DNA of 64,000 nucleotides, from contig CAVSGM010000003.1 in assembly GCA_963727485.1 (NCBI GenBank), positions 143,532 to 207,531 of the forward strand. The letters are read 5' to 3'. This document shows positions 34,903 through 61,000 of this stretch, piece by piece. The number at the start of each line of letters is the position of its first letter. The first letter of the stretch is position 1. Source of the DNA: an uncultured delta proteobacterium. Lineage in GTDB: Bacteria > Myxococcota > Myxococcia > SLRQ01. The notes beneath the pieces are model-generated. The model searched no databases. It saw only the letters and a list, made by a program, of their open reading frames with translations, and was not told the DNA's origin. A program made the translations under genes and the position numbers.

Positions 34903-35824
34903 ATGTCCACGGACCCCACCAACGGCCGGCTGACCCACCTGCGCCAGCTCGAGGCGGAGAGCATCCAGATCCTCCGCGAGGCGGCCGCCGAGTTCGAGAA
35001 CCCGGTGATGCTCTACAGCATCGGCAAGGACTCCTCGGTGCTGGTCCGCCTGGCCCAGAAGGCCTTCTACCCGGGCCCGCTGCCGTTCCCGCTTTTGCAT
35101 ATTGACACCACCTTCAAGTTCCGGGAGATGATCAGCTTCCGGGACCGGTTCACCCAGGAGCAGGGCCTGCGCCTGTTGGTCCACACCAACCCGGACGGCC
35201 TGAAGCTGGGAATGAATCCCTTCGACTTCGGGTCTGCCAAGCACACGCAGGTGATGAAGACCGATGCGCTGCGCCAGGCCCTCGACCACTGGCGCTTCGA
35301 CTGCGCCTTCGGTGGGGCCCGGCGGGACGAGGAGCGCAGCCGGGCCAAAGAGCGGGTATTCTCCTTCCGCGATCGGTTTCACCAGTGGGACCCGAAGCGC
35401 CAGCGGCCTGAGCTGTGGAACCTCTACAACGGCCGCATCAACCCGGGCGAGAGCGTCCGCGTCTTCCCCATCAGCAACTGGACCGAGCTCGACGTCTGGC
35501 TCTACATCCACGTGGAGAAGATCCCGCGTGGTGCCGCTCTACTTCGCCAAGAAGCGCCCGGTGGTCGAGCGCCAGGGCCAGCTCCTCATGGTCGACGACG
35601 ACCGGCTGCCCCTCGAGGACGGCGAGGAGCCGATGATGAAGAAGGTCCGGTTCCGGACGCTCGGGTGCTACCCGCTGACCGCCGGCGTCGAGAGCGAGGC
35701 GGACACGGTGCCCAAGATCCTTCGGGAGATGCTCGAGTCGCGCTTGAGCGAGCGGCAGGGCCGCCTCATCGACACCGACGAGGACGCGTCGATGGAGAAG
35801 AAGAAGCGCGAGGGGTACTTCTGA
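34903..35824 (+). CDS. cysD: Sulfate adenylyltransferase subunit 2; one single-base insertion near 35524
   Basis: [35 protein letters not shown] is the PAPS-reductase-like fold. The C-terminal [20 protein letters not shown]...KKKREGYF is in a second frame. Confidence 0.85.
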
Positions 35825-35836
35825 TGCGCGCGGTGC

Positions 35837-37676
35837 TTGGATGAGCGAGCAGGGTCGCACATCGAGGACATCGACGCCTGGCTGGCGGACTACCAGGAGA
35901 AGGAGCTCCTGCGGTTCGTGGCGGTGGGGTCGGTGGATGACGGCAAGTCGACGCTCATCGGCCGCCTGCTGCACGACACCGGGATGGTCTACGAGGACCA
36001 GCTCGAGGCGGCGCAGCGGGCGAGCCGGATGCCCGACGGGAGCCTCGACTTCTCGCTGCTGACCGACGGGCTGGCCGCCGAGCGCGAGCAGGGCATCACC
36101 ATCGACGTCGCGTACCGGTACTTCTCCACCGAGCAGGCGCAAGTTCATCATCGCCGATACGCCGGGGCACGTGCAGTACACCCGGAACATGGTGACCGGC
36201 GCGTCCACCGCGGACGTGGCGCTGATCCTCATCGACGCGCGGCTCGGGGTGCTGGAGCAGAGCCGGCGGCACGCGACCATCGCCTCGCTGCTGGGGATCC
36301 CGCACCTGGCCGTGTGCGTGAACAAGATGGACCTGGTGAGCTGGGACCAGGCGGTCTTCGAGCGCATCCGGGAGGACTTCAGCGCCTTCGCGGCGGACCT
36401 GGGGTTCAAGGACACCGCGTTCATCCCCGTGAGTGCGGTACGCGGCTCCAACATCGTCGAGCCGAGCACGCGGATGCCCTGGTACGACGGCCAGACGGTG
36501 CTCGGGTACCTGGAGCGCGTGCCGGTTGGCGCCGACCGGAATCTGGAAGACCTGCGGTTCCCGGTGCAGTACGTGATCCGGCCCGACCTGAACTACCGCG
36601 GCTACGCCGGCGAGGTGGTGAGCGGGACCGCGAAGGTGGGGCAGGAGGTGATGGTCCTCCCCGGCGGGCAGAAGAGCCGGGTGAAGGCCATCGACACCTT
36701 CGATGGGCCGCTGCGCGAGGCCGAGACCCCGCGGTCCGTGGTGGTGCGCCTCGAGGACGAGGTCGACGTGAGCCGCGGCGACATGCTCGTGGATGCAGGG
36801 CGGATCCCCCGGGTGCGCCGGCGCTTCGAGGCCCACCTGGTGTGGATGAGCGAGCGTCCCCTGGACCTCCAGAAGACCTACCTGCTCAAGCACACCACCC
36901 AGACCGTGCGGGCGCAGATCGGTCGGGTGGCGTGGAAGAAGGACATGGAGACGCTGGCCGAGGTGCCCGGCCGAGGGCCTCGCGCTCAACGACATCGGGC
37001 GGGTGGAGGTGACCTGCCACCGGGCGTTCTACTTCGACCCCTACCGGGTGAACCGGGCGACCGGCGCGTTCATCGTCATCGACTCGCTGACCAACGACAC
37101 CGTTGGCGCCGGGATGATCGTCGACGGTGCGGCGGAGCAGGGCCTCGACGAGGTCGTCCAGGAGCTCCATGCCGGGTCGGCGCTGGTGCCCAAGAGCCAG
37201 GTGAGCCCCCGGGAGCGGTTCGAGCGGCTCGGGCAGAAGGGCTGCGTGGTGTGGCTCACCGGGCTGCCGGGCTCGGGGAAGTGGCCGCTGGCCTACGCCC
37301 TGGAGCGGCGCCTCTTCGACATGGGGCACACCGCCACGGTGGTGGTCCCCACCGGCGAGGACCTCCGGACGATGATCAGCGCCGCCAAGGCCGGCGCCGA
37401 CGCGGGGCTCATCACCATCTGCGCCTTCGCCAGCTACGGCCGGGCCGACCGGGCGGCGGTGCGCGAGCGGGTGGGGGCCGAGCGCTTCGTCCACGTGTAC
37501 GTGAACACCGACCCGGCGCTGTGCCGGGAGCGGCGGCCCGACGCGAGCTTCGAGGGCTTCGAGGTGCCCGCAGCGCCCGGAGGTGACGGTGGCGCTCGAC
37601 GAGATGGACCTCGACGGAGCCATCGAGGCGATCCTCGAGGACCTGGGGCGGCGCGGGCAGTTCCGGCCACGCTAGC
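35837..37676 (+). CDS. cysNC: Bifunctional sulfate adenylyltransferase subunit 1 / adenylylsulfate kinase (CysN/CysC fusion); three single-base frameshifts (~36138, ~36975, ~37577)
   Basis: GTPase motifs GSVDDGKST and DTPGH; an EF-Tu-like beta-barrel region; and a C-terminal APS-kinase P-loop ([11 protein letters not shown]). It is split over ORFs 35837.., 36171.. and 37003... Confidence 0.85.
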
Positions 37677-37880: not shown

Positions 37881-38435
37881 ATGACGCTGGGCGCTTCACT
37901 CGCCAACCGAGGGGATGGATACCATCGTGACGAGCTCCGGCTCCTCGAGGCCCTCCATGAGTCCCCCGAGCAGAGTCAGCGGGAGCTCGCCAAGCAGGCA
38001 GGCCTCTCGCTCAGCAAGGCCCACTTGGTGCTCAAGCGGCTCGCCCAGCGGGGGATGGTGACGGTGAAGACCACACCGGCCAGCGGTCACCGCCTCGGCT
38101 ACCGGTACCAGCTTACCCCACGCGGGCACGCCCGAAAGGCGCTGCTTCGCTACCGTCTGCTCCAGAGAACGGCGGAGGAGTACCAGGACGCCGTGCGGCG
38201 CCTGAAGACGCGCGTGCGGGAGGCTTGGCGCCAGCACAAGCCGGCGTCGCGACGGGGTCCGCCGGCAATCCTTCTTGTGGGGTCGGGGGCCCTCTCCGAC
38301 CTGGTAAGGGACGTGGTGCAGCGCGCGGGGATGCCGGTGGTGGACGACGCCGCGCGGGCCGACCTGGCCATCGTCCTCGACCCCCGGGAGGCGGATAGTG
38401 TGGACTCCCGTCTGGCGAAGGTGGGGCTCGGATGA
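37881..38435 (+). CDS. MarR-family winged-helix regulator of the EPS-associated type
   Basis: [45 protein letters not shown]... The MarR wHTH pattern and the position at the head of a polysaccharide gene block suggest an EPS-associated MarR subfamily. Confidence 0.6.
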
Positions 38436-38454
38436 GCATCACCGAGCGGGGATG

Positions 38455-39500
38455 GAGATGAACCCCTCGTCCTTGTGGCGATCGGCGCCCGCAGTGGCGA
38501 GGGTCTACCGCGCACCCTCCCTCGGCGCCGCACTGGCAGTGGCGCCTGAGCCGGCGCTGAAGACCTTCGCTCGCGAGGAGGGGCTCGCGGCGCTCCTTGG
38601 GCGCCGGTGGGGCGTGTGGGGGAACGATGTCCAGGCGAGCGTGGCCAACGCGCTGGTGGCCGAGCAGGCAACCCGCCGGGCAATCTGTGCCCTGGAGGAC
38701 GAAGGCATCCCGGTGGTGGTCCTCAAGGGTGTGGTGGCCGCGCGCCTCGGCTGGACGAACCGTTCCTGCGACCCCAGTCGGACATCGATCTGCTGGTGCT
38801 TCGTGCGGACGTGCGTCGCAGCATGGCGGTGCTCCACGACGGGGGCCTGACCACCACCGCTCCCCAGGAGCCCGACCCGTGGCTGCACCACCGGACCCTG
38901 CGGAGCCGTTCCGGTCCGCCCATCGAGCTGCACTATGCGCTCACCAACGACCTGGCGCTGACCCTGGACACGGCGTCGCTCCTCGAGGCCCGGGGGCACC
39001 TGGGAGAGGGGCCGTCGCGACTGCCCACCCTAGGGTTGGTGGAGACCTTCGTGTACCAGGTCCTCCACGCGGCGGTGCACCTCTGCGCGCGTCTGGCCTG
39101 GCTGGTGGACCTCGTCGGCCTGCTCGAGGCCGTTACCGCGGTTTGGGACCAAGTGCTGGCGACCGCCAACGCCTGGGGTGCCACCCTGGCCCTGCAGACG
39201 ACCCTCGGGGCTCTGGACACGCTGGTGGGTGCCGGGCACGTGCCGCCTGGCCGGTCCAGCGTACGACTCGGCGCCGGTCGGGTGGCGGCGCTGGAGGCCT
39301 ACGTGCTGGCACGGCGCCGTCTGCCGGGGTGGCTGTCCTGGCAGGTCGACCGGGCCGCGCGGCTCGGGCTCTCCGACCGGCTCGCCGGGCTGCTGCTGGG
39401 ATCTGCGAAGGCGCGAGGCAGCGCCTCGAGACGAGGCCAGGAGGCGCTGACCTGGGTTCGCGCCCGCGGCCAGGGCCCCCGCCAGGGCTGGCCAGGGTGA
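38455..39500 (+). CDS. PF14907-type uncharacterised nucleotidyltransferase; one single-base deletion near 38752
   Basis: ...ALEDEGIPVVVLKGVVAARLG... then in the adjacent frame ...DEPFLRPQSDIDLLVLRADVRRSMAVLHDGGL..., matching the family core. Confidence 0.55.
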
Positions 39501-39522: not shown

Positions 39523-40878
39523 GTGACGGTCGCCGAGCACCGGCAGGGCCCTCCGGGGGGCCTCTCGATCCGTTCGCAATTTCGTGTGGGTTGCCGCCGG
39601 AAACCTAATCTACGGCGGCACCCAGTGGGGCCTGCTGGTTGCGATCGCGCGTGCGTTGAGCCCGGCGGCGGTCGGCCGCTATGCCCTCGGCCTCGCGTTC
39701 ACCGCACCGGTGTTTCTCTGCGGTCTTCAGCTGCGTGAGATCCTTGCGACCGACGCCAAGCGTGAGTACCCGTTTGCGGTCTACGCCCACCTCCGCTGGA
39801 CCTCGGTGCTCGCTTCGATAGTCCTCTCCTGGCTCCTGGTCCTCGCCCTCGGTTACGACCTCCAGATGCAGACCCTGGTGGTCCTCCTGGGGATCTCGAA
39901 GGCCGTGGGGTCGTTGAGCGAACTCCGGTATGGGCTCTTTCAGCTGCGGGAGCGCATGGGCCTCTCGTCCGCTCGCCGATACTTCGAGGCGTTCTCGACC
40001 TGGCCGCGGTGGTGGCCTCGGTGGTCGTGCTCCACAGCCTCGAGGTCGCCGTGGCCGGGCTGGCGGCCGCCTGGCTCATCGTCTACTTGGCCCATGACCT
40101 CCCCATCGCTCGCACTCTTCTCCATGCCGGCGAGGCTCCCGCCGCCGGCGCCGGTACGCGCCGTTCCAGGCTCTCGGACGCCCGGCCGCTTCTCCTGCGG
40201 GCGCTTCCCATGGGATTCGTGGTTCTGCTCATCTCGTTGAACGTGAGCGTCCCGCGGTACGCCATCGAGCACTGGTGGAATGCCCATGTGCTCGGTGTGT
40301 TCGCCGCCATGAACTACGTGTTCGTGGCGTTCGGGGGCGTGGTGATCGCGCTGGCCCAGGCTGTGACCCCGCGCTTGGCCCATATCATTCGGAGCGGCGA
40401 CCTGCCGAGTTCCGCAGGCTCCTGCTCCAGTCGCTGGGGGTTGGGGTGGCGGCCGGCGTCGGCACGGTGCTCGGTGTCGCGCTCCTCGGCCGGCCGGTGC
40501 TCAAGCTGGTGTACGGACCGGCCTTCGCTGGCCACCTCGACGTGTTTCTGGTCCTGGCCGTCGCGGGCGGCCTCGGATACGCTCGCACCTTTCTCGGGCA
40601 CGCGGTCACCGCGGCGCGCTGGTTCGCCATCCAGCCGCTGGTGGCCGTCTCCGGCCTCACCACCACCGTGGTTCTGGCGTGGCTGCTGGTCCCGCGCGGG
40701 GGCATGATGGGCGCCGCCCTGGCGGTGCTCGGAGGGTCTGTGGTGCAGACCATGGGCATGGGCAGTGTCGCCTCTGGGTATCTCGGGCGCTCTCCCGGGC
40801 ATCGATCGCGCAGCCCCGCCCCGAGGCATCGTGACCACCTCGGGTCCGGCCAGCGTCCGGATGCGGAAGGAACGATGA
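39523..40878 (+). CDS. wzx: Wzx-type polysaccharide flippase (MOP/PST family); at least three frameshifts, the first in a G6 run at ~39556
   Basis: After correction the N-terminus reads MTVAEHRQGPPGASRSVRNFVWVAAGNLIYGGTQWGLLVAIARALSPAAVGRYALGLAF. About 12 TM segments are spread over ORFs 39584.., 40009.. and 40275.. (...LLGISKAVGSLSELRYGLFQ...). Confidence 0.7.
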
Positions 40879-41780
40879 AACAGAGGATCAAGCAGCTCTA
40901 CTTCGGCCTCAGCGGCGCCGTGAGGTGGTGCGGGTGTCAATCCCCGCCGAGCCCGAGGGCCAGGCACGGCCCATCTTCATCGTCGGGCTCTATCGCTCAG
41001 GCACCACCTTGCTCCGGTACATGCTCGACAGCCACCCGAACCTCGCCTGTCCCGCCGAGACAGACTTCCTGGCCACCCTGGCTCCGCTGGTCAATCAGGA
41101 GCTTTACCGGACTGGGCTCGAGGCCATGGGATTCGAAAGCGACCACGTCCGGCTGAGACTGCGGCGGTTCATCTCCTACTTTTACGAGAACTATGCCCAG
41201 GCTCGGGGGAAGCAGCGGTGGGTGGACAAGACACCCGCCTATGTCGACCACCTGCCGTTCATCCGGTCGGTGTTCCCGCAGGCCCAGATGTTGCTGCTCT
41301 ATCGGCACCCCTTCGACCAGATCGAGTCGCACACCAGTGGTGGCGCCCGACTGCACTGGTCGTCGAGGGCTACCAGGAGCCCGGGGACACGGTCCGGATG
41401 GCGGCGGCGCGCTACTGGGCGAAGAAGGCGCAGAATATCCTGGACTTCGAGGCCCAGGACGCCGGGTGCCGTCGGCTGCGGGACGAAGACCTCACGGCGG
41501 ATCCCGAGGCGACGCTGGGGCCCCTGCTGGAGTGGCTGGGCGAGCCCTGGGATCCGACGTCCTCGACTTTAGCCGGGTTCGACACTCGGCGGGCCGAGAA
41601 GACAACAAAATCAAGACGACGACCGGTATCGTGGCGAGCGTGGGTAACTGGAGCAGCTGGCCCGCGGAGGAAGTGGCCGCCGTGAGGGAGATGGTGGCGG
41701 GGCCGATGAGCGCCCTTGGCTACGACAGCGAGCTGGTCGCCGCTTCTCGCGGTGGCGCACGCCGAGGACGAGGCCTCTGG
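40875..41780 (+). CDS. Sulfotransferase (PF13469 Sulfotransfer_3-like, PAPS-dependent); about three frameshifts; 3' end uncertain
   Basis: MKQRIKQLYFGLSGAV... then PIFIVGLYRSGTTLLRYMLDSHPNLACPAETDF is the 5'-PSB loop; ...RYWAKKAQNILDF... The start overlaps the wzx stop (ATGA). Confidence 0.65.
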
Positions 41781-42144
41781 ACACGAAGAACACATCCCGA
41801 TTCTCGTACTGGGCAACGCTCGTCGAGGTCTCGTATCCGGGCCGTGGCTCGTCGTTCTGCTCGCCTTCCCTGGCCCAGGGGGTCGGGGTGCGCCTGCTCA
41901 CCGGATTCCTCACGGCATCCGGTCTCTGGTACCTCGTCGGATGGTACGTCCTCACCCGTGAGCTGCTGCGGCCCTACATTCTCTTCTGGGGATCGTCCTG
42001 GCCTTCAACGCGGGCCAGGCGGTGCTCTTCGTCCTGGGGGTCTCGCGCCATGGCTTTCTCTTTCACAGTTCTCCGAGGGTCTAACCCTTGAGACCCTGAC
42101 GCTGGTGGACAATTCGCGGCCCTGCACCTCGGAGCGCTCCTGGC

Positions 42145-43230
42145 GTGGAGATGGAGAGGCGGCCGGTGGACCGCGCCCCCAGGAATCGGATCGACTTCAG
42201 CCATATGCGCACCATCGGCTGGTTGCTGGTGGTGGTATCGGCGCCCTTCGCCGCGGCCGTGCTCTGGAGCCACGTTTCCGACGTGCTCTCGAGCCGGGTA
42301 CTTCTCCATCTTCCGGGGCTCCTCGCCCACCGGCGTGCTGGCCGCCCGGTACGTGCTGGCGCCTCTGCTGCTCCCGGGGATCCTCCTGGTGGTGGCGGCC
42401 TCTCCCGAGCTCCCCCGACTCCGCCAGGTGCTCGCGGGGGTGACCCTCGCCTACGTGCTGGTGCTGTTGTTCATCGGCTCCCGGGGTGCCGCCGCCCGAG
42501 ACGCTCTGGCCTTCGCCTGGGTCTGGCCGGCGACGGTGAAACGCCACTCCACGGCCATGATAGTCGCCGTGGGGAGGTCGTGTCCTGGTTCTCTTCCCCG
42601 TCATCGGGGTGATGCGCGATGCGCCAGGGCACGAGCGCCTCTCTGCGGACTACGTGGTCAACGTCCTCTCGGAGGTGAACGATCCGGCACAGCGCAGCCT
42701 CTCCGAATCGGTGGGACAATGCAGACGGTCGCTTGGACCTTGGAGCCGGTGCCCGAGGAGCGACCGTTCTCCTACGGCGTCGAGTATGCCTACGCCATGC
42801 TCGCCGTGGTGCCGAACCTGGGGTGGAGCATCCACCCCTCCGAGGTTCACGCCCGGCCCGAGCGGTGGCTGACCCGCGAGGTCGCGCCGACCATAGCCCG
42901 CAAGGGTGGGTCGATTGGCTACTCCTTCCTCGCCGAGGCCTATCTGAACTTCGGCCCCGTGGGCGCCTGCCTCGTGCTCTTCCTGCTCGGCGCGGCGGTG
43001 GTGCGTCTCGACCGCTGGGCCACCGGCGAGCCCGGCGCCCCGAGGGCCGCGCGGATGCGTGGCGGCCGCCTCGCTCTTTCCCTTCCTCCTGGTCTTCCCT
43101 CGAGCCGAGGCAACCACCGTGGTGCGCGGGCTGGCATGGTACAGCGTCGCCCCCTACCTGCTGATCCTGGTGTTCCAGCAGATGTCAGACGGCTGGCCCC
43201 GGGGGGGGCGAGGCAGGCAGCGAGGCGTCG
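42145..43230 (+). pseudogene. wzy: Wzy-like O-antigen/EPS polymerase membrane protein, heavily fragmented by indels
   Basis: MRTIGWLLVVVSAPFAAAVLW..., VLAPLLLPGILLVVAASPE..., ...SYGVEYAYAMLAVVPNLGWSIHP...GGSIGYSFLAEAYLNFGPVGACLVLFLLGAAVV... is polytopic and its C-terminal pattern is Wzy-like. A further ~100-aa membrane fragment at 41790-42088 ends in an in-frame stop. Confidence 0.45.
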
Positions 43231-43340
43231 AGCAGACGCCATTCGGGCCGGCTACCTCGGGCGGAGACGCGATCCCTGACGGCGGCGTCCGCCGCGAACC
43301 GCCGAACCTCCTTCATCCCTCCTCTCCGGCTCCAACTCAC

Positions 43341-44459
43341 GTGCGTGTCCTCCACATCCTCGGATCGCTCGACCACGGTGGCGCAGAGCGCTGGCTCCTC
43401 GACATGCTCCCGGCGCTAGCGCAGGCGGGGGTCCACTCGGACTTCCTCCTGCACACCCCGAACAAGGGCGCCTACGAGGACGAAGTGCGGCGCCTTGGCG
43501 CCCGGGTCCACCGGGTCACCGACTTCTCCCGGCCAGTGAGCTACGCACGCGCCCTGCGCCGGATCCTCTGCGCAGGTACGGGACCTACGACGCCGTCCAC
43601 AGCCACGTACACTACTTCAGCGGCCTGCCGCTGATGGTCGCCGCGGAGGCCGGCGTTGCCGCCCGGGTGGCCCACTCGCACATCGACCGGCGCCGGGCCG
43701 AGTCGGGGGCCGCGCTCCGGCGATGCGCCTACCTGGTCGGCGCCAGGAGGCTGATCCGGTTGACGGCCACCCGTGGCCTGGCGGCCAGCCGCCTCGCCGC
43801 AGACGACCTCTTCGGCCGGCACTGGGAAGGCGACCCGCGCTTCGGGATCAGCCACTGCTCGGTCGACGTGGCGCGGATGCGCCCGACCCGCCCGCCCGTC
43901 GAGCTGCGCCGCGCCCTCGGCCTGCCCGGCGAGGGCCGGGTGGCAATCGCAAGTGGGCAACTTCGCCGGCGCCAAGAACCAGGAGTTCACCCTCACCGTG
44001 GCTCGCGAGGCGAAGGCCAGCGGCCGGCCCTTCACCTTCCTCCTCGTGGGAGACGGTCCCCGGCGAGTGGAGATCGAGGCGGCGGCGAGCCGGGACGGAC
44101 TGGACGACCGGGTCCGGTTCCTGGGGCTGCGGGACGATGTCCCCAATCTCCTCGTGGCATCGGACATCCTCCTCCTGCCCTCGCTCTTCGAGGGCCTGCC
44201 CATCATTGGCCTCGAGGCGCAGGCGTTGGGGTTGCCCATCCTCGCCTCGGACCAGGTCACCACCGAGCTGGCGGTGGGGCCCGGCTGGGTGACCCACCTG
44301 CCGCTGGCGTTGGGGCCGGCCATCTGGCTCGACCGGCTGGGCGAGCTGGCGCGGGAGAAGCGACCGCTGGACGAGGCCCGCGAGGTCTTCGAGCAGAGCG
44401 ACTTCTCGGTGAGCGCTGGGGTTGGCCGCCTCCGCGAGGCCTACGGCCGCCCCACCTAG
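43341..44459 (+). CDS. GT4-family glycosyltransferase (group 1), several frameshifts
   Basis: VRVLHILGSLDHGGAERWLLDM... N-terminal Rossmann domain. C-terminal ...LLVGDGPRRVEIEAAASRDGLDDRVRFLGLRDDVPNLLVASDILLLPSLFEGLPIIGLEAQALGLPILASD... is the EX7E-type motif region. Confidence 0.65.
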
Positions 44460-47440: not shown

Positions 47441-47443
47441 ACG

Positions 47444-48098: not shown

Positions 48099-48163
48099 CC
48101 GGCCGGGCACGCCAGGAGGCCGCGCGAACCGCGAATGCGGGCGGAGCGAGGGAGCCTAGAGGT

Positions 48164-49330
<1,167 letters not shown>

Positions 49331-49404
49331 CCAGCTCGCTGCATCGGCAACGCCGCTTTCCGACCCTCCCCGGTACTGGGCGTGGTCGCCACCTAGGTCA
49401 AATC

Positions 49405-51399: not shown

Positions 51400-53621
51400 A
51401 TGGAAGCAGGTGACAAGGCACTCGCCACCTCGGGCGCCGCCCAGAAGGTAGAGCCCGTCGACCTTCGGCGGTAATTCCTCGGCGTCGCCCGGATGCGGAT
51501 TCGGGGAATCGTCGCCATCTTCGCTTGCGTTGTGGCGGCGGCGACGGTGTGGGTCCTGAAGCAGCCGCGGATTTACGAGGCGACAACCTCGGTGGTCATC
51601 GATCCGATGCCTCCCCGGGCCCTTAAAGAACGTATCCGACGTGGTCGAGATTGGTGCCGGAAACTACTGGGCGACCAAGGAGTTCTACGAGACCGAGTAC
51701 AAGATCATCCAGAGCCGGGAGGTCTGCCAGCGGGTGGTCGACAAACTGGGGCTGGCAAAGGACCCTGCGTTCCTGGGCCTCGACAAGATCAAGGATCCCG
51801 ACCAGCGCGCCGCGCTGCGGAAGCTGGTCGACCCGGTCGCGCGCCTCCAGAGCATGATCCGGGTGGTCCCGGTCAGGGACTCCCGGATGGTGCTGGTGAG
51901 CGTCATGGACACCGACCCCAAGCGGGCCGCATTGCTGTCGACGAGTGTAGCCGAGGAGTACCGCGAGGAGAACCTCGCCCGGCGCGTCGAGGGCACGGGC
52001 AGCGTGGTGGACTGGCTGGAGCAGCAGCTCGGTGACCTCAAGCCGCGGCTCGAGGCCAGCGAGATGGCACTCTACGACTACCGAAAGCGCAATGACATGC
52101 TTACCGCCTCGCTGGAGGATCGGCGGAGCATTGTTTCGCAGAAGCTATTGGACCTGAATCGTGCTCTCACGGACATGGAGTCCAGGCGAATCCAGCTCGA
52201 GTCCAAGGTTGAGGAGATTAAGCGTCTCCGGTCTGCGGCGAAGGGGGACCAGTCGGCATTCGATAGCCTGCCCGAGGTCTCGAGCAGCCTCCTGATCGAG
52301 AAGCTCAAGGAGTCCCTCTCCGCACGTCTCCAGGACTATGCTCAGCTGCGGGAGCGCTATGGCGACAAGCATCCGAAGTTGGTCGCCGCCAAGGAGGCGT
52401 TGGCCGCTGCCCGAAAGGCCCTGTCCCGCGAGGTCCAGTACATCATCGGCGGCATCGAAGCCCAATACCGGGAGACCACGGACGCCGAGGCAGGCACCGA
52501 GCGCCTTCTGAAGAGGGTGAAGGCGGAGGCTTTCGAGCTCAACAAGAAGGCGATCGGGTACGACCGGCTGGAGCGGGAGAAGAAGGACAACGAGCGCCTC
52601 TACAACATGGTCCTGGAACGGACGAAGGAGGCCAACCTCTCCGGGCAGCAGCGGACCAACAACGTACGGATTGTCGATGCGGCCCTGGTTCCCCGGGGCC
52701 CAGTGCGTCCTCGGGTCCTGGTCGACATGGTGGTGGCCAGCGTCCTGGCGTTGCTGCTGGCCCTTGGCTACGCCTTTGTTCGTGAGTATCTGGACGCCAC
52801 CATCAAGAACAAGGAGGAAGTGGAGACGGATTTGGGCTTGCCGTTCCTGGGCCTCATTCCGCTCGTGCGCGAGCGCTTCACCGGGGAATCCTCGCGGGAG
52901 GTGGATCTCCACGTCCTCCTCAACCCCCAAGGTCAGGCCGCGGAGGCGTGTCGGGCAATCCGCACGAATCTCCTCTTCATGTCGCCGGAGCGACCGCTGA
53001 AACGGTTGGTGGTGACCTCCGCGGGCCCCCGGGAGGGCAAGACCACGACGGTCGTCGACCTCGGCGTCGTCATGTCGACAGGTGGCGCCTCCGTGGTGCT
53101 GGTCGACACGGACATGCGGCGGCCCCGGCTGCACAAGGTGTTCGGCCTCCCGGCGGACATCGGTCTCTCCAGCGTCATCCTCGGCGAGGCCACCCTCGAC
53201 GAGGCGATCTGCGCTACGGAGGTGCCCGGGCTCTTCGTCCTGCCCTGCGGGCCGGTTCCACCAAACCCCGCCGAGCTCCTGCATACCGAGCGCTTTGCCC
53301 GCACCCTGGACGAGCTCGCCACCCGCTACGACCGGACCATCCTCGACTCGCCCCCGGTCGGGGCCGTGGCCGACGCCAAGGTCCTGGCGGTGGCGGCCGA
53401 CGGTGTCCTGCTGGTCGTGAGGTCCCATAAGACCTCCCGGGACATGGTAGCCCAGGCGGCCGACTCGGTCCTCGAGGTCAACGGAAGGATTCTGGGCGTC
53501 ATCCTCAACCAGGTGAACCTGGAAGGTCCACAAGATGCAGGCTACTACTCGACCGTACTATCGGCAGAACTGCTTAGACGAGGCGCCGGGCACCGGCAAC
53601 GGGGTGGCAAGCGATGCCTAG
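51400..53621 (+). CDS. wzc: Wzc-type polysaccharide co-polymerase fused to a BY-kinase (tyrosine autokinase) domain; about three frameshifts
   Basis: The ATG at 51400 is preceded by aggaaacg. The N-terminal TM reads IVAIFACVVAAATVWVLKQPRIYEATTSVVID. There is a long periplasmic coiled-coil region and a second TM (VLVDMVVASVLALLLALGYAFV). The Walker A motif is VVTSAGPREGKTTTVVDLG; Walker A'/B are VVLVDTDMRRP and ...ILDSPPVG.... With a last frame correction the tail is Tyr-rich (GYYS..PYYRQ). Confidence 0.75.
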
Positions 53622-53654
53622 GTCGTACCCCTGCTCGGGCACGGAGAGGCGGCG

Positions 53655-54065
53655 GTGGAGGTGACGGCACTGCTCATCCAGGACATCATGACCCCGGACC
53701 CCACCTGCGTCACCGCGGCCACCACCACCGCCGACGCCCGGGCGCAGATGGAGCCCTCGGCTGCCGGCACCTCCCGGTCCTCGACGGCGCCACCCTCGCG
53801 GGCATCATCACCCATCGGGACCTCAACCGCCCGCGGCGAGACGGTCGGCGACCTCATGTCGCGCGACCTCATCACCGCCAAGCCGACCCTCCGCGTCGAC
53901 GCCGCCGCCGCCACCATGGCGGTCCACAAGGTCGGCTGCCTCCCGGTCGTCGAGAACGGCCGCCTGGTCGGCATCGTCACCACCTACGACCTCCTCGACG
54001 CCCTGGTGAAGTGGCTGCGCAGCCAGCTGCCCGCCGACGTGGACCCTGAGGGCACCCCGTACTAG
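53655..54065 (+). CDS. CBS-pair domain protein, about two frameshifts
   Basis: LIQDIMTPDPTCVTAATT... and ...VGDLMSRDLITAKPTLRVDAAAATMAVHKVGCLPVVENGRLVGIVTTYDLLDAL are two CBS motifs. Confidence 0.55.
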   Translation: MEVTALLIQDIMTPDPTCVTAATTTADARAQMEPSAAGTSRSSTAPPSRASSPIGTSTARGETVGDLMSRDLITAKPTLRVDAAAATMAVHKVGCLPVVENGRLVGIVTTYDLLDALVKWLRSQLPADVDPEGTPY

Positions 54066-54077
54066 GTTCCGGGCACC

Positions 54078-55010
<933 letters not shown>

Positions 55011-55026: not shown

Positions 55027-56371
55027 TCAGGCCCGGCACAATCCGCGCCCGCCCCTCGATCCCCCGGGTCGCCCCGCGCGTGTCCACCACCAGCGCCGCC
55101 TTGCCACCACCCGGGCGTAGTCGATGCCGGTGTGGTCGGTGACGATGACCACCGCGTCGCTCGCCGGCGAGCGTCGCGTCGTCGAGCGCCACCGAGGCCA
55201 GGTCGCGAGATCGTGGTTGCGCATCGGCCGGGCCCGGGGCACGAAGGGGTCGTGGTAGCTCACCTCGGCGCCGCGCTCCTGCAGCAGCTCGATGACTGCG
55301 AACGCCGGCGACTCGCGCACGTCGTCGACGTCGCTTCTTGTACGCCAGCCCAGCACCAGGACCTTGGCGCCCTTGAGCGGCTTGCCGTCGCTCGTTGAGC
55401 GCCTCGGCCATCCGGTCGACCACGTACTCGCGGCATCGCCGATGTTGATCTCGCCGGCGAGCTCGATGAAGCGCGTGGTCAGCCCGAACTCGCGCGCCTT
55501 CCAGGTCAGGTAGAAGGGGTCGATGGGGATGCAGTGCCCGCCGAGGCCCGGGCCCGGGTAGAAGGGCATGAAGCCGAAGGGCTTGGTGGCCGCGGCGTCG
55601 ATGACCTCCCAGACGTCGATGCCCATCGCGGTCGCAGAGCACCTTCAGCTCGTTGACCAGGGCGATGTTCACCGCGCGGAAGATGTTCTCGAGGAGCTTG
55701 GCCATCTCCGCCACCCGGGTCGACGACACCGGGATCGACCTGCTCGAGGGCGCCGCGCCGTAGAGCGCCACGCGCCGCCTCGCTGGCAACGCCGTCGGTC
55801 AGCCCGCCGACCACCTTGGGGATGCGCCGGGTGGTGAAGTCCGGGTTGCCCGGGTCCTCGCGCTCGGGGCTGTAGGCCAGGATAGAAGTCGGCGCCCGGC
55901 CGTCAGCCCGCTGCCGGCCTCGAGGATCGGCAGGAGCACCTCGTCGGTGGTGCCCGGATAGGTGGTCGACTCCAGGACCACGAGCTGCCCGGCGCCGCAG
56001 GTGCGGCGCCATGGCTGCGCGCGGTGCCCTCGACGTAGCTCATGTCGGGCTCGCGGTGTCGGTCGAGCGGGCGTCGGCACGCAGAGCAAGAGGGCGTCGC
56101 AGCTCGCGGCACGCGGGCGAAGTCGGTGGTGGCCGAGAAGCGCTCCGCCGCGTCCAGCGCCTCGCGCACTCGCCGCGTCGCGGATGTGCTTGATGTAGCT
56201 CTCGCCGGCCTCGAGCTTCGTCGACCTTGGTCGGGTCGACGTCGAAGCCGACCACGCGGAAGCCCCGCGCCGGGCGAAGGCCAGCACCAGCGGCAGGCCC
56301 ACGTAGCCCAGCCCGACCACGCCGACCACCGCCTCCCGGCGGTCGATCCGCGCCAACAGCTCGCTCGCCAT
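55027..56371 (-). pseudogene. UDP-sugar dehydrogenase of the UDP-GlcNAc/ManNAc 6-dehydrogenase (WbpA/WecC-like) type, densely frameshifted
   Basis: MASELLARIDRREAVVGVVGLGYVGLPLVLAFARRG... is the NAD-binding segment. ...[28 protein letters not shown]... has the catalytic Cys. ...KGAKVLVLG...[31 protein letters not shown]... Segments alternate between frames every ~50-150 nt. Confidence 0.6.
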
Positions 56372-56376
56372 GGTCG

Positions 56377-56721
56377 CTACCTCGCCAGCCCGCAGGCCTT
56401 CTTGCCGGCCTCGGTGTCCAGCTTGTGGCAGTCGCACTTGTCCACCAGCGCCGAGCACGCCGGGCCCGCCTTGGACAGGTCCGAGGACCGCGCCGCCTGG
56501 TAGGCCTGGAGCATCTGGGTCATGCAGTTCTGCTTCCCGAGCTCGGTGGTCTGGCAGTCGCAGAGCTTCTGGGCCAGCGCCAGGCAGGGGTCGGTGCAGC
56601 CGGCGGCGGCGACCGGGAGCACCAGGGCCGAAAGGAGCAGCCAGCGGCCGGCGGCGGCACGGAGGCGCGCGGCGACGCGGGCGCGGAGCGAACGAGTGGA
56701 GCTAGCGGCGACCGATGCCAT
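56377..56721 (-). CDS. Small secreted Cys-rich hypothetical protein (8 Cys, ~114 aa)
   Basis: Signal-like RWLLLSALVLPVAAAGC, then CTDPCLALAQKLCDCQTTELGKQNCMTQ...ACSALVDKCDCHKLDTEAGKKAC. Intact ORF between two dehydrogenase genes. Confidence 0.45.
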   Translation of the reverse strand: MASVAASSTRSLRARVAARLRAAAGRWLLLSALVLPVAAAGCTDPCLALAQKLCDCQTTELGKQNCMTQMLQAYQAARSSDLSKAGPACSALVDKCDCHKLDTEAGKKACGLAR

Positions 56722-58012
56722 GGTAGACGAATCCCATCTCCCGCATCCGCGCGGGGTCCCAGATGTTGCGGCCGTCGAAGACCACGGGTGAGGCCATCAG
56801 CCCCTTCATCCGGTCGAAGTCAGGGCGCCGGTACTCGTTCCACTCGGTGACGAGGAAGAGCGCGTCGGCGCCGTCGAGGCAGTCGTAGTTCTTGTCGTGG
56901 TAGGTGATGGCGTCGCCCAGGTCGGCGAGGCGCCGCCGGACGTTGTCCATCGCCGCGGGGTCGTTGGCGCGCACCTTGGCGCCCGCCTCCACCAGCGCCC
57001 GCAGCAGCACCAGGGCCGAGGCCTCGCGGATGTCGTCGGTCTGGGGCTTGAACGCCAGGCCCCACACCGCGAAGGTCCGGCCCGTGAGATCGCCGAAGTG
57101 GGCCTGGGCCCGCTCCAGGAGCACCCGCTTCATCTGGGCGTTGGTGCGCTCGGTGGCCTCGAGGATCCCGAAGTCCACGTCGTGGCTCCGCGCGGTGTGC
57201 AGGAGCGCCTGCACGTCCTTGGGGAAGCACGAGCCCCCGTAGCCCGCCCCGGGGAAGAGGAACGGGTAGCCGATGCGGCTGTCGGCGCCCACGCCCTGGC
57301 GCACCAGGTGGACGTCGGCGCCCACCGTGTCGCAGAGCCGCGCGATGTCGTTCATGAACGAGATGCGCGTGGCCAGCAGCGCGTTGGCCGCGTACTTGGT
57401 GATCTCGGCGCTCTTGTTGTCCATGAAGAGCACCGGGTGCTCGGTGCGCACGAAGGGGCCGTAGAGGTCGCCCATCACCTGGCGCGCCCGCTCGCTCTGG
57501 CAGCCGACCACCACCCGGTCGGGCTTCATGAAGTCGTCGATCGCCGCCCCCTCCTTGAGGAACTCGGGGTTGCTGACGATCTCGATGCCGCTCTGGGGCC
57601 CGCGGACCTCCAGGACCAGGGCCCGCAGCCGGTCCGCCGTGCCCACCGGCACCGTGCTCTTGGTGACCATGAGCGTCCCCGGGTCGCAGCGCTCGGCCAC
57701 CGACCGGGCCGCGTCGAGGACGTGCTGCAGGTCCGCCGACCCGTCCTCGTCCTGGGGCGTGGGCACCGCCAGGAACACCACCTCGCGGCCCTTGACCCCC
57801 GCCATGTCCGTGGAGAACGTCAGCCGCCCGTCGGCGACGTTGCGGGCCACCAGCTCCTCGAGCCCGGGCTCGAAGATGGGGATGTCCCCGGCCTCCAGCC
57901 GCGCGACCTTGTCCGCGTCGATGTCGAGGCACAGGACGTCGTTGCCCGACTCGGCGAAGCAGGTGCCGGCGACGAGGCCGACGTATCCGGTGCCCAGGAC
58001 TGCCAGACGCAT
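56702..58012 (-). CDS. ugd: UDP-glucose 6-dehydrogenase; intact
   Basis: MRLAVLGTGYVGLVAGTCFAESGNDVLCLDID...GAGYGGSCFPKDV has the catalytic Cys; full-length 436 aa. Confidence 0.9.
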   Translation of the reverse strand: MRLAVLGTGYVGLVAGTCFAESGNDVLCLDIDADKVARLEAGDIPIFEPGLEELVARNVADGRLTFSTDMAGVKGREVVFLAVPTPQDEDGSADLQHVLDAARSVAERCDPGTLMVTKSTVPVGTADRLRALVLEVRGPQSGIEIVSNPEFLKEGAAIDDFMKPDRVVVGCQSERARQVMGDLYGPFVRTEHPVLFMDNKSAEITKYAANALLATRISFMNDIARLCDTVGADVHLVRQGVGADSRIGYPFLFPGAGYGGSCFPKDVQALLHTARSHDVDFGILEATERTNAQMKRVLLERAQAHFGDLTGRTFAVWGLAFKPQTDDIREASALVLLRALVEAGAKVRANDPAAMDNVRRRLADLGDAITYHDKNYDCLDGADALFLVTEWNEYRRPDFDRMKGLMASPVVFDGRNIWDPARMREMGFVYHGIGRR

Positions 58013-58122
58013 GGTGCAACGCTCCTTCGGGTCCTCCAGGGGACCGATGGGGGGATAGCATCGCCGGGCCCGCCGGGCAACGCCACCGCGGGCCCCGGAC
58101 TTCCGCTAGACTGCCAGCCGGG

Positions 58123-61000
58123 GTGGGCACGAAGGGACCAGAAGGACGCGACGCGCCGCCGTCCGCGGACGCGCACGAGGCCGCCGCCGCGACCTCCGCC
58201 GCCCCCGGCGCGCCCCACCGCCGCCGCCGCCGGCACCGGGGCCCGGATCCCCTCCGCGCCCGCCGGGCCCGCACCCTCGAGGTCGCCGCCGAGGTGGGCC
58301 TGGGCGCCGTCCTGGTCGTGGCGCCCCAGCTCATCGGCTCGGTGCCCACCTGGGCCGTGGGCGTCGACCTGGCCCTGGCCGCCGCCACCTTCGCCCTCGT
58401 CCTCGCCGGCCGGCACCTCGCCGGCGCCAAGGTCCGGGTGCCGGGCCTCGCCTGGGTCCTCGTCGGCGCCCTCGGCCTCGAGGCCCTCCAGCTCGTGCCC
58501 CTGCCCCCGGCGCTCCTCGGCCTGGTGAGCCCCAAGGCCGCCGCCGTCGACGCCTTCGTCCTCCCGATGGTCCACGGCTGGCCCGCCTGGCGCCCGCTCT
58601 CCATGGACCCCTACCAGACCGGCCTCGACTGGGCGCGCCACCTCACCGCGGTCCTGGTGCTCCTCACCGTGGTCACCCTCGCCGACAAGCGCCGGCGCCG
58701 GCGCCGCCTCACCGCCCTCCTCGCCGCCTCGGCCCTGGTCGCCGTGGCCCTCGCCTTCGGCCAGCGCCTGGTGGGCCTCGACCACATCTACGGCGTGTGG
58801 CCCCGGGCCATCAGCGGCACCTGGGTCTTCGCCGCCTTCGTGAACCCCAACCACTTCGGCGCCTACCTCGACCTCCTGGCGCCGGTGAGCCTGGGCCTGG
58901 CGCTGTCCACCGAGGACCGGAGCCGCGCGGCCCTCTGGGGGCTCGCCTTCGTCCTGGCCGCCGGCACCGCGCTGCTCACCCTCTCGCGCGGGGCCATCGT
59001 GGCGCTGCTCGCCGGCCTCACCGTGTTCATCGCCCTGCGCCGGCGGGACACCGCCCCCGAGGGCCCCGAGGGCCCGGGCTTCCCCGACCGCCCCGGTCCC
59101 CCCGACCCCCCAGGCTTCCCCGACCGCCCCGCCGGCCCGGGTCGCCCCGCCGGCCCCCGCCCGCCCCCGCGCCGCCGGGCCCTCGCCCGGATGGCCGCCC
59201 CGCTGTTGGTGGGCGCCGCCCTCTCCGTCGCCGCCTACCTCGCCCTCGACCCCATCCTCGACCAGGTCGCCACCCTCACCAGCAAGCGCAGCCTCGAGCA
59301 CGAGGAGCGCTGGAAGATGTGGGGCGAGACCCTGCCGCTGGTCCGGGACTTCTGGCTCACCGGGGTGGGGGCCGGGGCCTACCGGGTGGTCTTCCCGATG
59401 TACAAGCGCATCCCCGCGGAGACCACCTTCGAGCACCCGGAGAACCAGTACCTGGAGCTCCCGGCGTCCCTGGGCGTCCCCGCCGCCCTGGCGATCCTCC
59501 TGGCGCTGGGGTGGGTGCTCCTGGGCGTGGCCCGGCGCCGGGACCTGCGGCCCCGGGAGCTCGGGCTCCTGGCGGGGATGGTGGCGCTCGCCATCCACGA
59601 GGGCGCCGACTTCGCCACCGCCTTCGGGGGCGTCGCGCTCCCCGCCGCCGCCGCCCTCGGGCTCCTGGTGGCCGCCGCCACCCCCGGCCGCCGCCGCGCC
59701 CGCGCGCGCGACGACGCCCGCGCGCCCGACGACGCCCCCCGACGCCCGCCTCCCGCGCCGCCTCCCGCGCCGCCTCCCGCGCCGCCTCGGGCCGCTCCCG
59801 GTGACCGCCGCCTTCTCCGTGGCCCTCGCCGGGGGCGTGGTCGGCGTCGCCCGGGCCTCGGGCCACCTCGCCAACGAGACCCTCGTCCGCCTCGACCACG
59901 CCCTCGCCGGGGGCGCCCGGGTCGACGACGCCGTCGCCGCCGCCGTCCGCGCCCGCCCCAGCGACCACATGCCCCCGCTCGTCGCCGCCGACACCCTGAT
60001 GCGCCGGGGCCACGACCCGGCCCGGGCCATGGACTGGGTCACCCGGGCCATGTACCTCGCCCCCACCGAGCCCCGGGGCCACCTCCTCGCCGCCCTCCTC
60101 CTCACCGAGGCCGGGCGCAAGGACCAGGCCCTCCTCGAGCTCCGCCTCGCCGCCCGGGACGGCCACCCCCTCCGGCGCGTCCTCGACCTCGCCGCCGCCC
60201 GCTTCCCGGACCTCGCCGACCTCGAGCGCTCGGTCCCCGACACCCCCAAGGCCCAGATGGCCCTCATGGACTTCCTCCTGGCCCACCGGCGCCCGGACGA
60301 CGCCTGGACCGTGGGCCAGGCGCTGAAGGCCACCGACCCCGGCGACCCGGACCTCCTCGACCGCCTCGGCCGCGCCGCCCTCGCCGCGCGCCGCCCCGAC
60401 GACGCCGAGACCCTCGGGGAGGCCCTGGTGCGCCTGGCCCCCGAGCGGCCCCAGGGGGCGCTCCTCGTCGCCGGCGCCCACTCCCAGCGCCGCGACTACC
60501 AGGGCGCCGCCGACGCCCTCAAGGACGGCCTCACCCGGGCCCACGGCGACCCGGCGCTCGCCATGACCCTCGCCGGCCTCTACCTCGGGCCCCTCAAGGA
60601 CCCCAAGGCCGCCCGCTCGGTCCTCGACGCCATGCGCCTCCCGGCCTCCGACGGCGCCCGGGCCCGCCTCCAGAGCCTCCTGGGCCGCGCGGCCTTCGAG
60701 CAGGGCAAGACCCGCCAGGCCCTCGACCGCTACCACACCGCCGCGCGCCTCGCCCCCTGGGACCCCGGGCCCCTCATCCAGGTCGGCGACGTCCTCATGG
60801 GGCTCGACCAGTACGCCCGGGCCCTCGACGCCTACCAGGCCGCCCGCCGCCGGGCCCGGGGCGGCACCCGGGACGCCCTCGACGCCCGGATCGCCCGGGC
60901 CCGGACCCGGCTCGCCGCCCTCGAGGCCTTCCGCAAGCGCCAGGCCATCCTCGGCGCCCCGGACCCCGGCGGCCCCCTGCCCGGCGCCGGGGACCGCTGA
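58123..61000 (+). CDS. O-antigen ligase-family (Wzy_C/WaaL-like) polytopic membrane domain followed by a TPR-repeat domain; either one fused gene with a frameshift at ~59790 or two adjacent genes
   Basis: The membrane domain (...WPRAISGTWVFAAFVNPNHFGAYLDLL...LTLSRGAIVALLAGL...HPENQYLELPASLG...) is intact in one frame to ~59790. The TPR region (59801..61000; ...AMYLAPTEPRGHLLAALLLTEAGRKDQALLELRLAARDG...) is open upstream in its own frame. The junction is a (cgccgcctcccg)x3 repeat. Confidence 0.6.
59751..59790. repeat. 12-nt tandem repeat x3 (cgccgcctcccg) at the ligase/TPR junction
   Basis: tcccgcgccgcctcccgcgccgcctcccgcgccgcctcgg encodes PPPAPPPAPPPA in the ligase frame. Confidence 0.6.

Follow-up and report, generated by a model that had tools for sequence, protein, structure and literature searches.

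Sulfated exopolysaccharides (EPS) of the Wzx/Wzy type and clusters that combine sulfotransferases with cysD, cysN and cysC have both been published. Synechan, the sulfated exopolysaccharide of Synechocystis sp. PCC 6803, is encoded by the Wzx/Wzy-type xss cluster, with sulfotransferases embedded among its genes and an outer-membrane polysaccharide export (OPX) component encoded at an unlinked site; among the Pfam sulfotransferase families described from clusters of this kind is PF13469 (PMC8205485). The sulfated capsule cluster of Vibrio sp. KMM 8419 has a second copy each of cysC, cysN and cysD beside its sulfotransferases, and its authors regard genes for 3'-phosphoadenosine-5'-phosphosulfate (PAPS) together with sulfotransferases as a hallmark of sulfated polysaccharide synthesis (PMC11641403). 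Further examples come from Cobetia, Pontiella and Actinoplanes. Here we analyze a 64-kb stretch of contig CAVSGM010000003.1, a part of a Myxococcota metagenome-assembled genome (MAG), hereafter the window, in which a first-pass annotation had described a sulfated polysaccharide locus supplied with PAPS by adjoining cysD and cysN/cysC genes. We read it, with moderate confidence, as a Wzx/Wzy/Wzc-dependent heteropolysaccharide locus (EPS or O-antigen-like) with a glycan-acting sulfotransferase, lying in a MAG stretch ridden with indels. The locus type itself is known: the statement that such polysaccharides are rarely documented in bacteria was too strong in view of the published precedents (PMC8205485, PMC11641403, PMC11766843, PMC7356697) and the wide occurrence of metagenomic homologues. 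In the literature searched, nothing was found on sulfated polysaccharides in myxobacteria.

G+C content is 70–80% across the window, and mechanical lists of open reading frames (ORFs) are therefore unreliable here. Coding phase was traced by third-position GC (GC3) profiles and a frame-path dynamic program, and Pfam and NCBIfam scans were run on stitched proteins translated along the frame path. The best matches of the window's GlmS are MAGs at no more than 75% identity, followed by Vulgatibacter (67%) and Anaeromyxobacter (63%). By this comparison the host is an uncultivated, deep-branching Myxococcota bacterium far from cultured genera, in agreement with the Myxococcota-like character proposed for the locus.

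Every gene family named in the first-pass annotation is detectable in the order and orientation given there (Table 1), by Pfam and NCBIfam profiles and, for UXS, by the match to human UXS1. The core of the Wzx/Wzy pathway is represented by an initiating transferase (PF02397, frameshifted), by Wzy (PF14296, 57 bits against a cut-off of 26.6; TIGR04370 stays at 32.9 bits, under its cut-off of 40) and by Wzc (TIGR01007, 177.5 bits, cut-off 108), and a second Wzy-type protein carries a Wzy_C domain. The Wzx-like protein spans the whole PF01943 (Polysacc_synt) profile at 27.1 bits against the Pfam cut-off of 28.2 and has no NCBIfam match; its homologues adjoin sulfotransferase genes at seven genome loci by tblastn, and indels in wzx near 39998 and 40381 are put right by the related contig L001 described below. 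Domain matches thus uphold a heteropolysaccharide locus of the Wzx/Wzy/Wzc type with a PglC/D/E/F-like module, and profile searches confirm the assignments to PF13469, PF02397, PF14907 and Wzy_C; the regulator falls short of the MarR_EPS family TIGR04176 (75.9 bits, curated cut-off 88). The absence of Wza and Wzb, already remarked upon, holds for the entire 64-kb window: neither Wza/OPX nor Wzb was found with Pfam on all major ORFs and tblastn with an OPX query, and both may be encoded at another site of the genome. The description of the assembly line as complete does not survive, as most of its ORFs are broken in the deposited sequence.

The sulfotransferase matches PF13469 over profile positions 1–216 of 216. 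In an alignment of 30 sequences that includes the reconstructed protein, the 5'-phosphosulfate loop RSGTT (S41/G42/T43/T44), E61, K118, R143 and S151 are invariant, so that the phosphosulfate loop, the 3'-phosphate-binding Arg…Ser and the catalytic Glu are all present. The family assignment of the proposed ORF at 40875-41780 therefore stands (E 2e-33), but an open reading frame it is not: homologues align to the region in frames +2/+1/+3, with a shifted N-terminus in addition. The nearest PDB entries are the tyrosylprotein sulfotransferases TPST1/2 and the CurM sulfotransferase (E about 1e-13), and the nearest NCBIfam family is NoeE, the carbohydrate sulfotransferase that acts on Nod-factor fucose. 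The sulfotransferase gene is flanked by wzx and wzy and shares their orientation. A merged frame without a stop would join it to Wzx; we rejected such a fusion, as the Wzx tail is rich in Arg, Pro and Ser and looks out of frame.

A scan of species-representative genomes yielded 80 loci carrying this sulfotransferase clade (best match 46% identity) in Myxococcota, Planctomycetota, Actinomycetota, Chloroflexota, Acidobacteriota, Verrucomicrobiota, Desulfobacterota and other phyla. In 53 of the 80 loci, tblastn with proteins of the window as queries found at least one EPS-type neighbour, and almost all of the closest homologues (40–46% identity) have PglC/E/F, GT4 (glycosyltransferase family 4), Wzx or Wzc neighbours. 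Homologues at 41–45% identity cluster with GT4, Wzy_C, PF02397, hexapeptide or GNAT acetyltransferases, DegT, Polysacc_synt_2, PF14907 and Wzz-kinases, and some of these clusters interleave two to five sulfotransferase paralogues with glycosyltransferases. Because the homologues sit in polysaccharide clusters across many phyla, a glycan is the likely acceptor. The full-length profile match, the intact PAPS-binding and catalytic residues and the neighbours of the homologues agree with the original proposal of a PAPS-type sulfotransferase in a polysaccharide locus. Sulfation of the glycan is plausible, and somewhat favoured over its absence, provided that the frames are intact in vivo and PAPS comes from outside the window.

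Two of the homologous clusters carry more than one sulfotransferase. An Actinomycetota MAG (MFD02840.bin.2.17, contig_60306, 2760-20011; L004/L019) carries two PF13469 sulfotransferases with PglC/E/F-like genes, GNAT, GT4, Wzy_C and a Wzz-kinase, and within 9 kb there are also cysN and cysD, a permease of the TauE family and a canonical APS (adenosine-5'-phosphosulfate) kinase encoded separately. Among the loci found, none comes closer to the arrangement envisaged in the first-pass annotation. A JGI metagenome contig (3300056889, Ga0568907_0000806; L005/L006) has five sulfotransferases of PF13469 and PF00685 among glycosyltransferases, Wzy_C, PglC/D/E/F-like genes and PF14907, a gene content that suggests heavily sulfated glycans in uncultured bacteria.

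The cysD and cysN genes both reach equivalog-level matches when scored on frame-corrected sequence: CysD 512 bits after the removal of one base (cut-off 413), CysN (TIGR02034) 558 bits (cut-off 336). As a whole, the CysN fusion scores 709 bits against the 'bifunctional' family PRK05506, just short of the cut-off of 715. Its C-terminal CysC-like domain, taken earlier for a maker of PAPS, is degenerate. The Walker A motif reads GLPGSGKW instead of GLSGSGKS/T, with Trp in place of the Ser/Thr that the P-loop pattern GxxGxGK[ST] requires; VPTGED replaces LDGD, which provides the Mg2+ ligand and catalytic base; a 19-aa deletion relative to canonical CysC removes the APS-binding segment '...FS..DR.ENIRR', and deletions of 11 and 4 aa remove the lid 'KGLY.KAR.GEI..FTGI' with its Lys. 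The HMMER alignment to the Arabidopsis APS kinase (3uie) skips chain residues 59–79. In the CysC of Mycobacterium tuberculosis the catalytic elements are the P-loop Lys456/Ser458, the invariant LDGD (Asp478, Asp480) and the lid residues Lys562/Arg559, and Ser458 touches the beta-phosphate (PMC4373884). We looked for the missing motifs in the other frames of the window, and they are not there. Moreover, LDGD, DR.ENIRR and KGLY are absent from all 120 closest orthologues (P0241–P0360), and in each of them Trp follows GSG[KR]; the loss of the kinase motifs is therefore not an assembly defect. The orthologues measure 603–640 aa, and nearly all of the named ones belong to Myxococcota, Polyangiales and Sandaracinaceae among them. 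NCBI names these orthologues only 'subunit CysN'. With LDGD, the APS-binding loop, the lid and the P-loop Ser/Thr lost, the conserved domain is probably kinase-dead and not a PAPS source, and the fusion most likely stops at APS.

The position of the pair is no better evidence for PAPS supply. Although cysD–cysN is co-oriented with the cluster and ends 218 nt upstream of the MarR gene, the orthologous pair in three other Myxococcota genomes (L087, L088, L089) is an isolated two-gene unit with unrelated, varying neighbours, and neither a sulfotransferase nor a polysaccharide cluster adjoins it in any of the three. Among the 80 sulfotransferase loci, cysD and cysN occur together within 10 kb in two, and an APS kinase in about nine. 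Pfam on the major ORFs and tblastn detected no canonical cysC, TauE-type permease or cysH in the window. The adjacency had been taken as a functional link; since the orthologous pairs stand alone elsewhere and so few sulfotransferase loci include cysD and cysN, the pair is best read as the clade's standard sulfate-activation (APS-forming) genes, which happen to abut the island. The hallmark of PAPS genes plus sulfotransferase in a polysaccharide cluster (PMC11641403) does not apply here, with the kinase domain degenerate and the adjacency non-conserved.

By GC3 and the frame-path program, the first ~24 kb of the window consists of long single-frame genes, and the upstream Pfk, FumC, RimK, GlmS, GlmU, Ggt and HemW-like genes are intact. 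Between about 26 and 51.4 kb a new coding phase begins every 80–600 nt, with further changes at 55.0–56.4 kb and near 59.7 kb; over the interval 34.9–61 kb we put the total at about 80 frame-breaking indels. Within the locus, the only intact ORFs are marR, UXS and ugd. Each GT4 gene has one to three breaks and the Wzy_C–TPR gene at least one; the motifs of the PglF-like gene are scattered through four to five frames, and wzc keeps one continuous 1.9-kb frame, with about two shifts probable, affecting the N-terminus and the Tyr-rich tail (near 53545). In cysD, frame 1 is correct up to an extra C near 35527, after which the conserved C-terminus 'VVPLYFAKK...KKREGYF*' continues in frame 2, and the CysNC orthologue P0241 (74–78% identity) aligns to the window in frames +2/+3/+1/+2. 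Genes outside polysaccharide synthesis in the damaged stretch are broken as well: an AsnB-type amidotransferase, Fpg/Nei, cysD and cysN. The record's own gene call P0091 (41193..42443) contains the real sulfotransferase C-terminus amid out-of-frame sequence, which makes up most of it; the breaks are therefore present in the deposited assembly itself.

A close relative, the same-species metagenome contig_78193 of ENA record ERZ25039549 (L001), matches the window in gene content and gene order and likewise has fragmented gene calls. It aligns to window positions 37518–51703 with 94.4% identity over 14.3 kb and 193 gap openings. Between 37.5 and 47 kb we count 108 substitutions in 9.3 kb (1.2%) and about 55 indels; from 47 to 51.7 kb substitutions and indels both climb steeply, the indel density rising from about 3–6 per kb at 37–46 kb to 30–37 per kb at 47–51 kb. 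In the 37.5–47 kb interval the window has 33 frame junctions, about 10 of them simply places where one gene gives way to the next. Of the 33, eighteen coincide with an indel of fitting sign relative to L001, often within 0–5 nt (chance expectation about 29%). L001 keeps the frame at the window's break sites and carries its own, different indels. A frame-preserving merge of the two, replacing 72 indel events of the window, restores long frames for Wzx, the sulfotransferase, PglC, PglE and PglF. Conserved motifs and GC3 periodicity survive in every fragment, and the frame paths are explained without any nonsense mutations. Tested for homopolymers, the indels relative to L001 are mostly isolated bases, so that typical error signature is absent. 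Several related records belong to the 'MFD' long-read MAG series and bear Flye-style contig names. With an indel:substitution ratio of about 1:2 at about 1% divergence, independent indel sets in the two contigs, and motifs and periodicity kept throughout, the breaks most likely represent consensus errors of low-coverage long-read assemblies and not gene decay. The codon-position counts between the window and L001 (25/35/48 substitutions; 43 synonymous and 65 non-synonymous) are too few and too mixed with errors to demonstrate purifying selection, and we do not rely on them.

A functional locus with a glycan-acting sulfotransferase has to be held against several findings that weigh against it. 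The damage is strikingly regional, sparing the first ~24 kb, UXS, Ugd and 1.9 kb of Wzc; the score of Wzx lies just beneath the Pfam cut-off; the reconstruction of PglD rests on the relative L001 and not on the window; the nearest characterised relatives of the sulfotransferase have acceptors other than polysaccharide, namely protein tyrosine for TPST and a polyketide intermediate for CurM; and neither an active APS kinase nor a PAP phosphatase, a sulfate transporter or an OPX is present in the window. We infer, and do not observe, that the indels are artefacts, which sugars are made, that the glycan is the acceptor and that the organism makes PAPS at all. Regional damage would be compatible with assembly error if coverage was low or mixed-strain over a variable surface-polysaccharide island. 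The same pattern, next to 24 kb of intact flanking housekeeping genes, would also fit real frameshifts in a polysaccharide island (about 26–51 kb and parts of 55–60 kb) that is decaying as a whole and no longer functions; loss or inactivation is common among surface-polysaccharide loci, and the indels lie mostly outside homopolymers. We nevertheless consider decay very improbable: one indel for every two substitutions at 1.2% divergence is far from natural decay, the different indels of L001 leave its frame whole where the window is broken, every fragment retains its motifs and periodicity with no need for nonsense mutations, and cysD, cysN, Fpg/Nei and the AsnB-type gene are hit alongside the polysaccharide genes.

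Consensus error being the preferred account of the breaks, what the sulfotransferase modifies and where its PAPS originates have still to be weighed. An enzyme acting on protein tyrosine, a lipid or a small metabolite, and present in the cluster by chance or co-regulation, would fit the solved relatives, the JGI label 'protein-tyrosine sulfotransferase' on homologues and the 27 of 80 homologue loci without an EPS-type neighbour by tblastn. It would leave unexplained the co-oriented place between wzx and wzy, the polysaccharide-gene neighbours of nearly all close homologues and the interleaving of paralogues with glycosyltransferases, and the nearest named bacterial family, NoeE, is one of carbohydrate sulfotransferases; we judge a non-glycan acceptor unlikely. 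Somewhat less likely still is that cysD and a bifunctional cysN/cysC form a dedicated PAPS-supply module for the sulfotransferase. Short distance and shared orientation speak for it, as do the lack of cysH, sulfite reductase or transporter genes flanking the pair, the score of 709 bits for the 'bifunctional' family, and the linkage of cysN, cysD and APS kinase to sulfotransferases in L004/L019 and in Vibrio KMM 8419 (PMC11641403). That score is below the cut-off, however, and the NCBI name goes no further than CysN; the elements named as essential in PMC4373884 are missing from the domain in every one of the 120 orthologues, neither EPS nor sulfotransferase genes adjoin the pairs of L087, L088 and L089, and cysD with cysN accompanies the sulfotransferase clade in only the two loci. 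We therefore retain a glycan-acting sulfotransferase with PAPS supplied from elsewhere.

The module for the amino sugar contains all four families contiguously (PF02719, PF01041, TIGR03570, PF02397), with no equivalog-level match: LegC, PseC, PseB and FnlA all score under their cut-offs. The aminotransferase comes closest to the LegC family TIGR04181 (358 bits on the merged sequence, cut-off 420), the dehydratase to PseB/FnlA, well under the cut-offs. For PglD, the frames of L001 read 'VVIYGAGGHGKVV...GFLDDG' followed by a left-handed beta-helix, the C-terminus being common to the window, and the reconstruction scores 194 bits against TIGR03570 (NeuD/PglB/VioB family, cut-off 161). The hexapeptide transferase of L005 was tried as a guide to this region and dropped, as it belongs to a different subfamily and gives no mapping. 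The TIGR03025 match of the PglC-like transferase is confined to the C-terminal catalytic domain. N,N'-diacetylbacillosamine (diNAcBac) is a plausible product on these family matches, as may be sugars that differ in C4 stereochemistry or in the N-acyl group. The proposal that Ugd and UXS supply nucleotide sugars is well founded in its enzymes: Ugd has its three domains (TuaD-like 477 bits; TIGR03026 429 bits), and UXS scores 344 bits (E 5e-102) to human UXS1 (2b69/4gll) versus 148 bits for the next short-chain dehydrogenase family. The second nucleotide-sugar dehydrogenase (TIGR03026, 316 bits) is nearest to UDP-ManNAc dehydrogenase and TviB among named families.

Taken together, the genes suggest the following route. 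The PglF-, PglE- and PglD-like enzymes would produce a UDP-2-acetamido-4-(acyl)amino-2,4,6-trideoxyhexose of the bacillosamine/AAT type, which the short PglC-like transferase would load onto undecaprenyl phosphate. Three GT4 enzymes could then add sugars from UDP-glucuronic acid (Ugd), UDP-xylose (UXS) and a UDP-N-acetylhexosamine uronic acid (WecC/TviB-like dehydrogenase). The cytoplasmic TPST/NoeE-like sulfotransferase would most likely O-sulfate the lipid-linked repeat unit with PAPS before flipping by Wzx; sulfation at this point is the most economical arrangement, as PAPS is cytoplasmic and the sulfotransferase has no export signal. Wzy would polymerise the units and Wzc set the chain length, with the export component (OPX) encoded elsewhere. 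As the fused CysC-like domain is probably kinase-dead, PAPS would come from an unlinked APS kinase, with cysD–cysN forming APS only.

Table 1. Coordinates, profile matches and frame condition of the genes of the polysaccharide locus and of its upstream candidates (window positions)
Feature	Position	Strand	Match	Frame condition
UpxY-like NusG-family antiterminator, then AsnB-type amidotransferase	27493..29925	+		amidotransferase frameshifted
cysD, sulfate adenylyltransferase small subunit	34903..35821	+	PF01507 E 3.6e-51	1 frameshift
cysN + degenerate APS-kinase-like domain (about 37180–37663)	35840..37663	+	TIGR02034	3 frameshifts
MarR-type winged-helix regulator	37881..38435	+	PF01047/PF12802/HTH_24	intact ORF
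PF14907 uncharacterised nucleotidyltransferase	38455..39491	+	PF14907 E 8.7e-33	about 1 frameshift
Wzx-like flippase	39572..40874	+	PF01943	about 2 frameshifts; 3' end unclear
PF13469 PAPS-type sulfotransferase, TPST/NoeE-like	40875..41780	+	PF13469 E 2e-33	at least 3 frameshifts; no ORF as deposited
Wzy-type repeat-unit polymerase	41781..43300	+	PF14296 E 1.9e-15	about 8 frameshifts
GT4 glycosyltransferase 1	43344..44459	+	PF13692, PF00534, PF13439	
GT4 glycosyltransferase 2	44509..45667	+	PF13692 E 1.2e-33, PF00534	
GT4 glycosyltransferase 3	45709..46835	+	PF13692, PF00534, PF13439	
Short PglC-like polyprenyl-phosphate sugar-phosphate transferase	46867..47470	+	PF02397 E 5.5e-41	about 7 frameshifts
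PglD/NeuD-type sugar N-acetyltransferase	47480..48101	+	TIGR03570	at least 5 frameshifts; middle unreadable in window
PglE/LegC-type sugar 4-aminotransferase (DegT)	48164..49330	+	PF01041 E 3.6e-51	about 11 frameshifts
PglF/CapD-type membrane-anchored UDP-HexNAc 4,6-dehydratase	49397..51360	+	PF02719 E 1e-97	about 25 frameshifts
Wzc-type PCP-2a/BY tyrosine autokinase	51493..53619	+	GNVR, AAA_31, Wzz domains; TIGR01007	
CBS-domain pair protein, between wzc and UXS	53622..54050	+	PF00571 E 7e-20	
UXS, UDP-glucuronate decarboxylase	54078..55010	+	human UXS1 match	intact ORF
WecC/TviB/WbpA-like UDP-N-acetylhexosamine dehydrogenase	55030..56383	-	three UDPG_MGDP_dh domains	about 6 frameshifts
Small Cys-rich putative lipoprotein ORF, 109 aa	56386..56712	-	no Pfam match	
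Ugd, UDP-glucose 6-dehydrogenase	56702..58012	-	PF03721, PF00984, PF03720	intact ORF
Wzy_C (O-antigen ligase/polymerase-like) membrane domain + TPR	58123..61000	+	PF04932 E 1.6e-16, TPR_19	

Two genes of the locus had been passed over in the first-pass annotation: the CBS-domain protein, whose first CBS repeat is apparently scrambled by a pair of indels, and the Cys-rich ORF with a signal- or lipoprotein-like N-terminus between two nucleotide-sugar dehydrogenase genes. The gene for the PF14907 nucleotidyltransferase is also called in L001 and L005. The Wzy_C–TPR protein has a Pro/Gly-rich insert ('PEGPEGPGFPDRPGPPDPPGFPDRPAGPGRPAGP'), a frame change near 59733 and a C-terminal TPR domain. Upstream of cysD, the antiterminator scores 91.7 bits against the UpxY family NF033644 (under the cut-off of 100), and the AsnB-type, XrtA/PEP-CTERM-like amidotransferase 371 bits against TIGR01536 and 348 bits against TIGR03108. 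Both are typical companions of polysaccharide loci, and the island may therefore start about 7 kb upstream of the coordinates first assigned to it. Just upstream of the antiterminator lie two adjacent small PilZ-domain proteins (26196-27018, forward strand), which could be c-di-GMP inputs to polysaccharide production. Elsewhere in the window, a fusion of an ArsR-type helix-turn-helix with a rhodanese domain precedes a membrane protein of the DoxX family that has an additional C-terminal domain (5218-6882, forward strand); they may be a sulfur-trafficking pair unrelated to the polysaccharide locus. A reverse-strand gene (20897-23582) encodes a protein in which a response-regulator receiver domain is joined to a very long coiled-coil, rich in Ala, Glu and Gln and containing repetitive 'AEQAQADA'-type units; by eye, we take it to resemble FrzS.

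The most useful new points are cautionary: the stretch is of poor sequence quality, and myxobacterial CysN carries, across the clade, a CysC-like domain that is probably kinase-dead. About 80 frame-breaking indels in a deposited MAG make any ORF-based annotation of the region unreliable, and 'CysN/CysC fusion' annotations in Myxococcota should not be taken as PAPS synthesis, as the kinase motifs are missing throughout the clade. If the frames are intact in vivo, Myxococcota would be a further group for which sulfated surface polysaccharides are predicted. A single TPST/NoeE-like clade of sulfotransferases accompanies PglC/D/E/F-type clusters in at least ten phyla, which aids the mining of polysaccharide sulfotransferases.

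Several known systems share parts of this architecture. Fungal ATP sulfurylase carries a C-terminal APS-kinase-like allosteric domain, and, as is probably the case in the Myxococcota fusion, an APS-kinase fold is thereby kept without kinase activity on a sulfate-activating enzyme; it is a homo-oligomeric enzyme of the Sat type, not CysDN. By analogy, the CysC-like domain could be an APS/PAPS-sensing regulatory module, here coupling sulfate activation to the first described sulfated exopolysaccharide of a myxobacterium, a speculation to which we assign very little probability. The diNAcBac module of Campylobacter and Neisseria uses the same four enzyme families. In the window they are contiguous in the order C, D, E, F, and comprise a short monotopic PF02397 transferase, a NeuD/PglB/VioB acetyltransferase, a DegT aminotransferase and a Polysacc_synt_2 dehydratase with a membrane N-terminus; this module, which is accompanied by neither the PglB oligosaccharyltransferase nor PglK, would feed a Wzy-polymerised polysaccharide and not an N-glycan. 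M. tuberculosis likewise has cysD followed by cysN fused to a C-terminal domain of the APS-kinase fold, which there makes PAPS with the Lys456/Ser458 P-loop, LDGD (477–480) and lid Lys562 (PMC4373884); the Myxococcota domain has GSG(K/R)W, no LDGD, and deletions of 19, 11 and 4 aa that remove the APS-binding loop and lid. The Vibrio KMM 8419 cluster also contains sulfotransferases among polysaccharide genes with cysD/cysN-type neighbours. It is ABC-transporter (Kps) dependent with a separate cysC and second cysN/cysD copies; here the locus is of the Wzx/Wzy type, the domain corresponding to CysC has degenerated, and cysD–cysN has the look of the copy that is standard in the clade, its neighbours not being conserved. 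The xss cluster differs in its cyanobacterial host, in having two sulfotransferases and eight glycosyltransferases (one and three here) and XssQ/R/S regulators in place of MarR, and in having no PglC/D/E/F module, UXS or Ugd; the sulfation of synechan is experimentally supported, whereas here sulfation is a prediction from genes. In its overall plan, the xss cluster (PMC8205485) resembles the locus of the window: Wzx/Wzy-type assembly with a polysaccharide co-polymerase, several glycosyltransferases, a linked regulator, embedded sulfotransferases and an OPX encoded elsewhere.

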